Shown here: in pieces, positions 3,907 through 7,205 of the stretch | Numbering within the stretch: position 1 is the stretch's first letter | Layout: each line of letters starts with the position of its first letter | Source of the DNA: a virus | Lineage: Duplodnaviria; Heunggongvirae; Uroviricota; Caudoviricetes | Reading direction: 5' to 3' (one strand) | DNA length: 11,469 nucleotides | IMG/VR virus record: IMGVR_UViG_2671180609_000014 | Translations under genes and position numbers: made by a program | Notes under the pieces: model-generated | What the model was told of the DNA's origin: nothing | Seen by the model: only the letters and a program-made list of their open reading frames with translations | The model's database searches: none

Positions 3907-4075
3907 TATCGCGTCCTCAACAATGAATTTTGTGATGCGGTGCCTGGTGCCTCCAGGTGACGTTAACCAGTTAACAATTAACGCCGGATACAGAGAATCC
4001 ACCCATAACACTGTTTTTAGCTTTAACTGTTCCGCGTGCGCTTAGCCGCATTCACTGCATCACAAAATTCACTTT

Positions 4076-4131
4076 AAAAAGGGCGGACATCAGTTCATGG
4101 GCAAACAGATGCCGCCAAACGTCACCAGAAA
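4076..4131 (-). ncRNA. dicF: DicF small RNA with intrinsic terminator
   Basis: Minus-strand sequence UUUCUGGUGACGUUUGGCGGCAUCUGUUUGCCCAUGAACUGAUGUCCGCCCUUUUU carries the DicF 5' seed (UUUCUGGUGACGUUUGGCGG) and a GGCGG/CCGCC stem followed by a U-run. It lies immediately upstream of dicB. Mature ends are produced by processing, so coordinates are approximate. Confidence 0.75.
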
Positions 4132-4464
4132 ATTGATAACAGAGGGCGTTGCAGCGGGGTTGTCACTTAAGCGTATGGTCAACCTGACAACCCGGTGTCC
4201 TCAACGGGGAAGGAATAACCCCGCCATACTTACCGCTGCGCCATTTCGCGGAGTGCCACAACCGGAAGCGCACGGTCGACGAAAATTTAACGACAGGCTA
4301 TCTATGAACCAGCAACCTCGCCGTGCGCTTTCGCGTTATGCTCTGACTTTTCAGAGAAATATCCTTTCAGTAAACTGTCAGTGCCGGATGTTCACCCGTG
4401 TCCGGCGCACGCACTCCACTTCACCCGTGGAGAACTCCTTAATTACCAACCCTCAGGAGGGTGA

Positions 4465-4698
4465 ATGTTAAAATCAACTCTTATTGCTAAATGCCTTTAT
4501 CAAAATCGCATGGTAAGCAGCATTTCAATAGGCGAGTCTGCAGTTAAAAGTATTTTCGAAGAGTACTTTCCCGGGCATGATTTTAATAAATGGAATACCA
4601 AATTACCGCCAGCAGTTTCAACGCGTATTCTGAAAGCAACCGAAAGAGCAAGTACAATTCGCGTTAACTATTTCATTAAAGATTTGTGGGATCTTTGA
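4465..4698 (+). CDS. Hypothetical protein, 77 aa, convergent with and overlapping the 135-aa gene
   Basis: ATG at 4465 with AGGAGG 5 nt upstream; 77 sense codons in AT-rich DNA where chance ORFs are short. Product MLKSTLIAKCLYQNRMVSSISIGESAVKSIFEEYFPGHDFNKWNTKLPPAVSTRILKATERASTIRVNYFIKDLWDL has no motif I recognise. The SD could instead be part of a hairpin in the minus-strand transcript. Confidence 0.4.
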   Translation: MLKSTLIAKCLYQNRMVSSISIGESAVKSIFEEYFPGHDFNKWNTKLPPAVSTRILKATERASTIRVNYFIKDLWDL

Positions 4699-5083
4699 TA
4701 TCCACAGAGCCTAAAGTATGTGCATATGGATGTGCTATTATGCGCCCTCGCAGATTTGCATCATTTTCTAAATTCACTGAACGAAACAGGGCATCAACAA
4801 GGCTCTGTACAATGCAAAGGCAATCGAAGACTGTCGCCGTTTCTGTTTTGATTGATGAAAGAACATGGCCATTCACGCAAACAGAAATTACCCGTTTATT
4901 AACATCGCTTTCCTGCTTTTGATTATCAGAACCATATAGCCCAGAAAAAGCATTGCGCACATTACGAACCATATTATCGATGGTTTCTTTTTCTGCGGTA
5001 CTAAGGTCAAGAGTAGCCAGTTGTGAACGAACTATATTCGATGCCATTTCCTGTAATGGCGTTGGTAAATCTTTAAATTCCAT
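4676..5083 (-). CDS. Hypothetical protein, 135 aa (moron candidate in the dicB operon)
   Basis: ATG at 5083 preceded by GAGG about 8 nt upstream, and it starts 22 nt downstream of the 72-aa gene on the same strand. The ORF lies in an AT-rich stretch (about 4440-5100). Product MEFKDLPTPLQEMASNIVRSQLATLDLSTAEKETIDNMVRNV... is soluble and has no recognisable motif. Confidence 0.65.
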   Translation of the reverse strand: MEFKDLPTPLQEMASNIVRSQLATLDLSTAEKETIDNMVRNVRNAFSGLYGSDNQKQESDVNKRVISVCVNGHVLSSIKTETATVFDCLCIVQSLVDALFRSVNLENDANLRGRIIAHPYAHTLGSVDIKDPTNL

Positions 5084-5105
5084 TATTAGCCTCGTTGGTT
5101 AGCTA

Positions 5106-5324
5106 TTAACGTGGGTATGTAATCATTCTGGCAATGCTTAATGCCGCTGCTTTTTCCAGATTGGTGATATCCTGCTCCAGAGCGGACAGATTTTCAGCCT
5201 GCTTAGCCCTGGCTTCATTGGCCCATTTCAGGTCCTGCACCGCCTTAATTTTCTGGTGCATCCACTCATAAAGTTCATCATCGGTATAGTCTGGCGCGAT
5301 GATGACGGGGTCTCGTTTCTGCAT
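5106..5324 (-). CDS. Small hypothetical protein, 72 aa (positional counterpart of ydfC)
   Basis: ATG at 5324 with AAGGAG 6 nt upstream. Product MQKRDPVIIAPDYTDDELYEWMHQKIKAVQDLKWANEARAKQAENLSALEQDITNLEKAAALSIARMITYPR is charged and predicted helical. Size and position match ydfC of Qin, but I do not recognise the sequence itself. Confidence 0.6.
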   Translation of the reverse strand: MQKRDPVIIAPDYTDDELYEWMHQKIKAVQDLKWANEARAKQAENLSALEQDITNLEKAAALSIARMITYPR

Positions 5325-5396
5325 GTCGGCTCCTTGTGGTTAGCGTTGCCTGCTTTTTAACCACGTCAGGCGAGGTGGTATCCTCTGAGGGGTCTG

Positions 5397-5696
5397 TTAC
5401 TCGAGAGGAAATTGGTTATGAATACAATCAAGTTTTCTTGCCCAGAATGTGGTGGCTAAGTCTTTGACACATCCTTTAAGCCGCAGGGCTCTGACAGTTT
5501 CGCGGGAGCCATCTGCAAAAATTGTGGTCACCTTGTAACTGAAGATGAGTCCTCGCAGTTCGATGACGAAATCGTTGACAATATCTTCGGTGCACTCACC
5601 AGAGACTTTCTGAAGTAAAGGCGCATACCGCTTAGTTACCGCTCTGATAACTCTTACCTGTCCGGCAATGGCGCTGATATCAATATAAAGCGCCAT
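5397..5696 (-). CDS. Hypothetical protein, 99 aa (first ORF of the dicB operon; coding strand uncertain)
   Basis: Co-directional with the dicB operon and downstream of the putative promoter/operator. It has a weak RBS, and a protein-like zinc-ribbon frame with a better RBS exists on the opposite strand (see findings), so the coding strand is unresolved. Confidence 0.4.
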   Translation of the reverse strand: MALYIDISAIAGQVRVIRAVTKRYAPLLQKVSGECTEDIVNDFVIELRGLIFSYKVTTIFADGSRETVRALRLKGCVKDLATTFWARKLDCIHNQFPLE

Positions 5697-5829
5697 CGCT
5701 GTTTCTTTGCTGATCCCTGGACGCCTTCCATTCTGATGTTTGACTCGCCCACTGAGAAATCCTCTGCTTCCCCTTAACGCCGGGTAGCGGAACTGTTTGC
5801 TGAGAACACCGTGCGGTGTCTTGATGAGT

Positions 5830-5890
5830 AGAATTTAGAATAGCCTAAGAGTTATGGTCAAGCTTTTTGTGTAGAAAAACCTAAGCTTCT
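5830..5890 (-). promoter_or_regulatory. Putative early-left promoter with repressor operator repeats (OL-like)
   Basis: Minus strand carries CTTAGGTTTTTCTAC (5885-5871) and CTTAGGCTATTCTAAATTCTAC (5849-5828), matching CTTAGGTTTCTCTAC in the dicA-dicC intergenic region. A TTGACC (-35-like), 17-nt spacer and CTAAAT/TAAATT (-10-like) overlap the second repeat. Confidence 0.45.
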
Positions 5891-5958
5891 TGATGTAAAA
5901 AACACAAGTATTTGAAAGTTTGTGCTTTTTATTACAGAGAGTTGCGAAAAAAGGGGGG

Positions 5959-6366
5959 TTATTTATTTGCGCTTCTTTTGCGAGCTTTGAGTAGTTCTTC
6001 AAAAAGTTTGTTGAAATTCTCAACTCGAGCACGCATCTCTGACAACAGAGCCTTTTGCTCTGACTCAGGCAGTGCGTCGAACAGTTGAAGCAACTCTTTT
6101 TGATCTTCTGTCAGATTGACTGGCTGATTATCTGGGATCGGTTCGCCTGGTTGCTTATCTTCATCTCCAAAAAGAAGCCAAGTCGGCGAGCACTGAAGCG
6201 CCTGGCTCAGTGCGAATAATCTCTTCCCCGCTGGCTGTGTTTCATCTCTTTCCCATTGAGAAATTGTTACGTGAGCCACTTTGACCAGCTTACCTAATGC
6301 GGCCTGAGACAGTTTTAATTTTTTTCGCCTGTATAAGAGGCGAGCACCGAAGGTTTCGTTTTTCAT
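5959..6366 (-). CDS. dicA: DicA-like HTH (XRE family) prophage repressor, 135 aa
   Basis: MKNETFGARLLYRRKKLKLSQAALGKLVKVAHVTISQWERDETQPAGKRLFALSQALQCSPTWLLFGDEDKQP...ALPESEQ...MRARVENFNKLFEELLKARKRSANK has the same length as K-12 DicA and matches my recollection of it closely. It is divergent from a DicC-like gene and upstream of ydfC-DicF-dicB. Confidence 0.9.
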   Translation of the reverse strand: MKNETFGARLLYRRKKLKLSQAALGKLVKVAHVTISQWERDETQPAGKRLFALSQALQCSPTWLLFGDEDKQPGEPIPDNQPVNLTEDQKELLQLFDALPESEQKALLSEMRARVENFNKLFEELLKARKRSANK

Positions 6367-6442: not shown

Positions 6443-6670
6443 ATGTTGAAAATTGATGCTATAGCGTTTTTTGGCAGCAAAACAAAGCTTGCCAATGTCG
6501 CAGGAGTTAGGCTGGCAAGCGTTGCTGCATGGGGGGAACTGGTTCCTGAAGGTCGCGCGATGCGCCTGCAAGAGGCATCCGGCGGGGAACTTCAGTACGA
6601 CCCCAAAGTTTATGACGAATATCGTAAGGCAAAGCGGGCGGGGCGGTTGAACAATGAAAATCACCACTGA
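6443..6670 (+). CDS. dicC: DicC-like (Cro-position) small regulator, 75 aa
   Basis: Divergent from the dicA-like gene, with ATG 76 bp from the dicA start. Size matches DicC (76 aa), and MLKIDAIAFFGSKTKLANVAGVRLASVAAWGELVPEGRAMRLQEASGGELQYDPKVY... agrees with my imperfect recollection of DicC. Confidence 0.7.
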   Translation: MLKIDAIAFFGSKTKLANVAGVRLASVAAWGELVPEGRAMRLQEASGGELQYDPKVYDEYRKAKRAGRLNNENHH

Positions 6671-7205
6671 ACAGGTTTGTGAGGCTCTGGATACCTGGGT
6701 ATGCCGACCAGGAATGACACAGGAGCAGGCGACGATATTAATCACGGAAGCATTCTGGGCTCTGAAAGAACGCCCGAACATCGATGTTCAACGCGTCACG
6801 TTTAATGATGGCGAGGTTGATCAACGGGCGCTGGGCGTTAACCGGGTGAAGATATTCGAACGCTGGAAAGCTATCGACACCAGAGATAAGCGTGACAAAT
6901 TCACGGCGCTGATTCCGGCAATTATGGAGGCTATCCGGATCAGCGATTTCAGATTGTATTGTGAAATTACTGACGGAAAAAGCATTACGTACATGATCGC
7001 CGGGTTAAACAAAGAATATGGCGATGTGGTGGAGTCCGGGCTGCTTTTTGCGGATCCAGTTGTTGTGGAACGTGAGACTGACGAGCTTATAGAAAAAGCT
7101 ATTGCTTTCAAGCACGCGTATCGTCAGCAATACCAATATTACTTTGCAGATAAACAAATGTCTGCCAGGGGGGCGTATGAGTATCGATGCACTACGATGG
7201 GCTAA
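6654..7205 (+). CDS. CII-position protein, 183 aa (possibly YdaT-like; unverified)
   Basis: ATG at 6654 overlaps the last 17 nt of the dicC-like gene, and the ORF ends 29 nt inside the replication gene. Product MKITTEQVCEALDTWVCRPGMTQEQATILITEAFWALKERPNIDVQRV... contains RWKAIDTRDKRDKFTALIPAIMEAI, which I tentatively associate with the Rac YdaT family. Confidence 0.55.
   Translation: MKITTEQVCEALDTWVCRPGMTQEQATILITEAFWALKERPNIDVQRVTFNDGEVDQRALGVNRVKIFERWKAIDTRDKRDKFTALIPAIMEAIRISDFRLYCEITDGKSITYMIAGLNKEYGDVVESGLLFADPVVVERETDELIEKAIAFKHAYRQQYQYYFADKQMSARGAYEYRCTTMG

Follow-up and report, generated by a model that had tools for sequence, protein, structure and literature searches.

It is still disputed whether bacteria and phages have stretches of DNA with a functional protein gene on each strand, and the accepted cases are few. 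The closest described are the antisense pairs of Escherichia coli O157:H7 (ano/ECs2385, laoB/ECs5115, pop/ompA and asa), which rest on RNA-seq, Ribo-seq and phenotypes and are described as evolutionarily young and taxonomically narrow (PMC5960689, PMC5810103, PMC7103648, PMC6294744). The locus considered here lies in a window (the whole stretch analysed) of 11,469 nucleotides, IMG/VR record IMGVR_UViG_2671180609_000014 of the Caudoviricetes, which belongs to a lambdoid E. coli O157:H7 prophage. It resembles these pairs in that one open reading frame (ORF) is embedded antisense in another, both are proposed to be protein-coding and annotation keeps one of them. It differs in that the case for it is one of comparative genomics, in that conservation of both partners can be followed down to about 30% identity and outside the enterobacteria, and in that mobile elements carry the two together. 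The module has the same frame relationship as the shadow ORFs discussed in PMC7457138, which lie antisense in codon register, where stops are intrinsically scarce. A shadow would hardly be expected, however, to run on to a conserved start with a Shine-Dalgarno (SD) motif, to have a synonymous-site pattern of its own in that extension and to persist across saturated divergence, as the present ORF does.

Two further comparisons concern the zinc-ribbon protein encoded on the plus strand. The family NCBIfam NF047912 (ECs_2282) has a cut-off that the read-through product of the window passes, although the copy in the window is interrupted at codon 14; the description of the family is silent on a gene on the opposite strand. 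RalR/RalA, a type I toxin-antitoxin system, and the Lar restriction-alleviation family are known from the Rac prophage. The module shares with RalR/Lar (TIGR03655) a small zinc-ribbon-like protein, a place in a lambdoid early-left region and an antisense partner transcript, but it scores 15.6-17 bits against a cut-off of 39.6 and thus falls outside the family, and its partner is a conserved ORF rather than a short RNA.

The reading favoured here, with a probability of about 0.7, is that the locus holds two genes nested antisense to each other, an old pair that travels on phages, insertion sequences and plasmids. The plus strand would encode a zinc ribbon of 63-76 aa with a C-terminal helix (ECs_2282 family) and the minus strand an alpha/beta protein of 93-118 aa, the frame of which would hold the entire zinc-ribbon gene antisense and about 25 codons more. 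For the zinc-ribbon half a family has already been defined; a literature search gave no description of the two genes as a pair and nothing on the locus. The features of the window copy are collected in Table 1.

Table 1. Features of the antisense module in the window (positions are those of the whole stretch).
Feature	Position	Strand	Evidence
Candidate promoter of the zinc-ribbon gene: TTAACC, 16-nt spacer, TGg-TATCCT (extended -10)	5357..5384	+	Conservation, inference only
Shine-Dalgarno AGAGGA of the zinc-ribbon gene	5404..5409	+	Sequence reading
Zinc-ribbon gene, ECs_2282 family, 66 codons, pseudogene in the window	5418..5618	+	NF047912 score, Sakai alignment, pN/pS
Premature TAA, G-to-T at 5457, Glu14 GAA to stop	5457..5459	+	Alignment with 675SK2 and Sakai Sp12
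Minus ORF, 99 aa, WP_001240336.1, phrog_21318; whole conserved core of the antisense partner	5397..5696	-	Open in 123/123 haplotypes
Non-overlapped part of the minus ORF, 26 codons, motif L-x-I-D-x-S	5619..5696	-	Minus-frame pN/pS 0.38-0.47, no stops, many synonymous third-position changes
Remnant of the native minus start: GTG 5750-5752, SD AGAGGA 5760-5765 (tcctct on plus)	5745..5765	-	G1 alignment
Promoter-like TTGACC-18-TAAATT (5861-5832) and 60-bp leader, common to the K-12 Qin dicB-operon promoter region	5768..5861	-	

The zinc-ribbon gene and its stop codon

Read through from the ATG at 5418 to the terminal TAA at 5616-5618, the plus-strand product reaches 56.5 bits on NF047912 (cut-off 37) and so belongs to this family, which bears out the view of an earlier note on this DNA that its zinc-ribbon pattern is unlikely to be due to chance; the segment downstream of the internal TAA reaches 31.7 bits by itself, under the cut-off. 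The coordinates and translations given in that note, including the 99-aa minus ORF at 5696..5397, were all re-read and found correct. Its four cysteines are likewise present in a C-x2-C ... C-x2-C pattern, but the spacing that it gave as x19 is actually x21 (C8-x2-C11-x21-C33-x2-C36). The uninterrupted ORF of about 60-75 codons that characterizes members of NF047912 is absent from the window, with a TAA at codon 14. Homologues without this TAA, which the note had proposed to look for, were found, for example in strain 675SK2 and in Sakai Sp12. As these intact relatives read GAA under the TAA of the window, the lesion is a single G-to-T at 5457 and the plus gene of the window is a pseudogene, consistent with the suggestion that a real zinc-ribbon gene here carries a nonsense codon. 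Indeed, ECs_2282 of Sakai (prophage Sp12) equals the read-through product of the window except at residue 14, which is Glu14 in Sakai. Programmed read-through of the TAA was weighed as an explanation and discarded, since GAA stands in the intact alleles and this TAA has an independent counterpart in a second nonsense allele, observed at locus L081 (Glu44, GAG to TAG). Both are mild on the minus strand, where the change at 5457 turns TTC into TTA (Phe83 to Leu) and that of L081 is a silent Leu change. At another locus, L164, a serine stands in place of the fourth cysteine.

A profile search of 1.84 billion cluster representatives retrieved 78 clusters, mostly of 60-75 aa, with four invariant cysteines and a C-terminal helix, and NF047912 matches the plus partners in all four enterobacterial groups sampled (53-82 bits). 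The zinc ribbon is thus a real and widespread small-protein family. Within the overlap with the minus ORF, the plus frame has a pN/pS of 0.29-0.35, the lowest among the six frames (Nei-Gojobori). The same domain also starts longer proteins, namely phrog_4852 and the PADLOC candidate PDC-M14A. A contig scan with the zinc-ribbon alignment gave two doubtful distant matches and nothing else, and an AlphaFold2 model of the zinc ribbon from a six-sequence alignment (pLDDT 58) was set aside.

Upstream of the plus ATG, the candidate promoter lies in a block which is almost base-identical in groups G1 and G2 and in locus L130 despite the divergence of the ORFs; the promoter itself agrees with the consensus at 8 of 12 positions, under the threshold of the scan. 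The intergenic block GCCTGtcTTTTcACCACaTCAGGCtcGGTGGTAT (window 5350-5385; seen also in L087, L126, L129, L130 and L185) is near-identical across groups whose ORFs are about 30% identical, and two alternative hairpins (GCCTG/CAGGC and CCAC/GTGG), or a promoter, are possible in it. In the G3 loci L185, L188, L197, L234, L237, L238 and L239 a hairpin, TTCTTGCT-ATTCCCCAAC-AGCAAGAA, is found 40-110 nt ahead of the plus ATG and shows compensatory changes from one locus to the next, and a second copy of CCCCAACAG sits at the ribosome-binding site in G3 loci. This hairpin and the CCCCAACAG repeat may represent a structured leader of the zinc-ribbon mRNA.

The frame on the opposite strand

The minus product matches phrog_21318 over its full length (223 bits, positions 1-99 of 99), an automatic cluster of unknown function in which membership is no evidence of function, and it has no family match in NCBIfam and Pfam. 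Its homologues reach down to about 15-25% identity. Database matches for one strand only, on which the earlier note would have given up its reading, were encountered for neither strand, as both products have homologues. From a 40-sequence alignment, AlphaFold2 predicts a beta-alpha-alpha-beta-beta-alpha fold for the 99-aa protein (pLDDT 85.4, pTM 0.65; two of the five models confident), and fold and PDB comparisons of this model gave no structural or solved relative. In other G1 alleles the minus gene has a GTG start, an SD AGAGGA and a product of 118 aa. In the window and in ten further loci, the loss of 1 nt between 5745 and 5746 has put this native GTG out of frame, where it yields a 32-aa ORF (5654-5752), and the 99-aa ORF is left with a poor ribosome-binding site. 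With the nonsense codon on the plus strand and the loss of the start on the minus strand, both partners are damaged in the window copy, and this copy of the module is decaying. In prophages of Citrobacter freundii (L126/L127/L128 1495-2019, L104) the minus ORF has 174 aa, and its N-terminal extension resembles the C-terminal half of a 135-aa ORF of the window (VNGxxLxSI...GSxxI). This suggests that the minus protein and the protein of the 135-aa ORF (window 4676-5083, minus strand) may occur fused or adjacent.

Loci were gathered twice, through the plus protein and, separately, through the minus protein, and the sample comprises 123 unique haplotypes from four deep enterobacterial groups with about 30% identity between groups. 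The two ORFs are in exact codon register, so that position 3 of the plus codons faces position 1 of the minus codons. Whichever protein had found the locus, every one of the haplotypes has the in-register antisense frame open over the length of the zinc-ribbon gene; in six, the plus strand has a nonsense codon and the minus ORF is intact, and the reverse case occurs in none of the 123. In each group sampled the zinc-ribbon gene lies codon for codon antisense inside an open ORF of 93-118 aa, the ATG of which is always 72-84 nt past the plus stop in enterobacterial loci and the stop of which falls between -57 and +3 nt relative to the plus start. Each ORF has a start codon and a ribosome-binding site across the lineages, the minus GTG and SD of the window being out of frame: outside G1 the minus start follows SD motifs such as GAGGTG or AGGAG in nearly all lineages, and SD-like motifs stand upstream of the plus start in most.

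According to the earlier note one of the two frames is probably a shadow. Stated for this locus, the zinc-ribbon gene alone would be real, and the minus frame would be kept open by a register in which its stops need TTA, CTA or TCA in the plus frame, and be annotated only where the true gene is broken or without a model. PGAP does call the minus ORF at loci with a broken plus ORF and the zinc ribbon at loci with an intact one, and in a single lineage an open frame is likely enough: the chance of an open minus frame given the plus protein is 0.1-0.5 per lineage (0.06-0.29 for an open plus frame given the minus protein), and 2 of 13 neighbouring genes are also without in-register antisense stops, the average being about 2.5 per 66 codons. 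Over the 80 unique plus ORFs, however, the stop-generating codons are missing altogether, TCA from 232 TCN codons and TTA/CTA from 238 Leu codons, that is 0/470, although at least 17 switches between synonymous codons have occurred; Leu is mostly encoded in this frame by the unusual CTC. In neighbouring prophage genes, TCA accounts for 25 of 66 TCN codons and TTA/CTA for 33 of 158 Leu codons. The minus frame, in turn, contains codons that would stop the plus frame in 0 of 704 cases. Both frames are thus open more often than codon usage predicts across divergent relatives, with combined probabilities that are rough because the lineages are not independent.

The Nei-Gojobori ratios flip at the plus stop, with the plus frame lowest inside the overlap and the minus frame lowest beyond it. 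Inside the overlap, the minus frame has a pN/pS of 0.6-0.9, as would be expected of a shadow (a naive value, the test being confounded there), and an OLGenie-like ratio of 0.40 for the same frame was dropped as evidence, since it is indistinguishable from that of a non-coding control frame (0.55). A shadow accounts poorly for what lies past the plus stop, where the minus frame remains open for 24-28 codons until it reaches an ATG, preceded by an SD and fixed in its distance, and bears a coding signature. In this stretch it is the sole frame free of stops, its pN/pS over 26-27 codons is 0.38-0.57, the lowest of the six frames, and synonymous third-position changes recur in Pro, Ala, Gln, Gly, Asp and Leu codons. 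The substitution patterns show purifying selection on the plus frame within the overlap and on the minus frame outside it, and the comparison of lineages shows both frames to be kept open and to carry translation signals.

Beyond the enterobacteria, three distant members of the family (GC 36-63%) all have the antisense frame open and an N-terminal h-x-h-D-x-S motif past the plus stop. A metagenome scan with a degenerate plus-strand DNA pattern added 13 further non-enterobacterial members, in 8 of which the minus ORF is complete and in 5 of which it is interrupted with the zinc ribbon intact. The loss of the minus ORF in 5 of the 16 distant loci would agree with a shadow, but complete ORFs are over-represented among them (11 of 16 against 4.0 expected, P=1.4e-4, a conservative estimate). 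With an HMM of the non-overlapped N-terminus alone, the expected minus ORFs were four of the top five among 3421 ORFs; as no single E-value is significant, this is informative as rank enrichment only. The minus protein has neither a family nor a fold match, as might be expected of a shadow product, but its pLDDT of 85 speaks against this. A shadow frame is therefore unlikely, and the claim of the earlier note finds no support either in the minus frame of the enterobacteria, which is open in every lineage sampled, with its own start and SD and a coding signature outside the overlap, or in the excess of complete minus ORFs in distant relatives.

Another explanation is that the minus strand serves as a regulatory antisense RNA on the zinc-ribbon mRNA in the type I style of RalR/RalA, the ORF being incidental. 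The fully antisense arrangement would suit this, as would the weak Lar/RalR-type resemblance (TIGR03655 at 15.6-17 bits, phrog_6422 at E=0.01), the presence of the module on mobile elements, like addiction modules, and that of a hok/sok locus within the same window. An RNA role, however, requires no open frame, fixed start, SD or synonymous-site pattern, the Lar-family score is far under its cut-off of 39.6, and an Rfam scan of 5050-6000 gave no family match at the locus, which makes this explanation very unlikely. That the minus gene alone is real and the zinc-ribbon ORF a by-product is barely credible: the minus ORF is longer and runs with the operon in all enterobacterial contexts, and the TAA allele is present in about 515 complete E. 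coli genomes, but the four cysteines are invariant over the 78 clusters, which would demand of the minus frame an A at a synonymous third position each time, pN/pS in the overlap is lowest for the plus frame, and the zinc ribbon persists where the minus ORF is broken and also heads longer proteins.

Position in the prophage and on mobile elements

The genes of the window follow each other in the order int, xis, exo, ydfD-like, dicB, ydfC, the ORF pair and a dicA-like repressor, and past the repressor dicC-like, a ydaT pseudogene, replication genes and paa. The module occupies the position of ydfA-ydfB in the Qin prophage of K-12, between the dicB-operon promoter (downstream of dicA) and ydfC. 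The position is the same, but sequence similarity is absent: the comparison with Qin that the earlier note had proposed, made by blastn and tblastn against the K-12 dicA-ydfC interval, gave no homology to ydfA/ydfB (the sole tblastn hit is weak, E 0.039), and the module as a homologue of YdfA (DUF1391) or YdfB was rejected for want of DNA or protein similarity. In this region the window and K-12 have only ydfC (95%) and 60 bp of the dicB-promoter leader in common. The minus-strand transcript presumably starts from the promoter-like site at 5861-5832. In every enterobacterial phage context the minus ORF is co-directional with the surrounding operon and the zinc ribbon opposed to it, at sites which include the place right after the N antiterminator gene (L237, L238), the lysis/terminase interval (L239) and the tail module (L240).

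In the interval between ydfC and dicB (3907-5105), a scan at Rfam gathering thresholds found no DicF RNA; in K-12 Qin, dicF is located at the equivalent place. The interval contains the 135-aa ORF mentioned above and, on the plus strand, a 77-aa ORF (4465-4698), which overlap tail-to-tail by 23 nt. The sok antitoxin RNA (Rfam RF01794) is matched over its full length at 11246-11395 on the plus strand (103.9 bits, gathering score 59), which implies a hok/sok-type type I toxin-antitoxin locus at the right end of the window. On an identical prophage, RefSeq records a frameshifted ydaT-family gene (window about 6655-7205; L001 6856-7406), and a fimbrial gene of the same prophage has a frameshift and an internal stop (window about 9605-10138; L001 9806-10339). 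Both broken genes would fit a decaying element.

The distant copies (L300, L255, L265 and L244, also L268 and L245) have mobile-element neighbours. These are IS1595-family transposases (at four loci, within about 50 bp), an IS1-like gene, a TrwC relaxase or an HNH gene, and in distant bacteria the module lies in either orientation relative to its neighbours. This suggests that it may be a passenger cargo of insertion sequences and conjugative elements. Under the reading as a nested gene pair, the module would travel as cargo of lambdoid and other phages, of IS1595 elements and of a relaxase-bearing element.

Possible expression and meaning of the pair

As an antisense nested pair, the module in the window would be the first cistron of a DicA-type early-left (dicB) operon, in replacement of ydfA-ydfB. 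In that position the minus gene would be transcribed with the operon, while the zinc-ribbon gene, being opposed to it, would need a promoter of its own, and we infer that both proteins are made. As the DNA is shared, transcription of one gene would interfere with that of the other, so that expression would be mutually exclusive; transcription would be convergent, and the lysogen would have the operon silent and the zinc ribbon expressed, a state that induction would invert. Such mutually exclusive expression through transcriptional interference is put forward tentatively, as the most likely way in which the module works. It is quite doubtful that the two same-register proteins are a functional, perhaps physically interacting pair, which might serve for addiction or as a switch, each strand being silenced when the other is transcribed, and which would have stayed together in distant bacteria on plasmids, phages and insertion sequences. 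If this were true, no antisense overlapping gene pair known in bacteria would be older or more widespread.

The locus also illustrates an annotation problem. NCBI has given a name only to the zinc ribbon, and the minus half is annotated simply as a hypothetical protein or as PHROG clusters. In E. coli genomes 98.8% identical over the stretch, RefSeq annotates the plus ORF as the NF047912 family; where the copy is 100% identical to the window, in about 515 of 5,426 complete E. coli genomes, it annotates the minus ORF. As RefSeq alternates between the two ORFs according to which of them is intact, the partner is never recorded. For the disputed question of protein genes on both strands, the module offers a directly testable case. 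Natural knockouts of a single partner exist in the TAA allele of E. coli and in the distant losses of the minus ORF, the O157:H7 Sakai genome contains an intact and a broken copy together, and each frame allows a stop to be introduced without a change in the product of the other.
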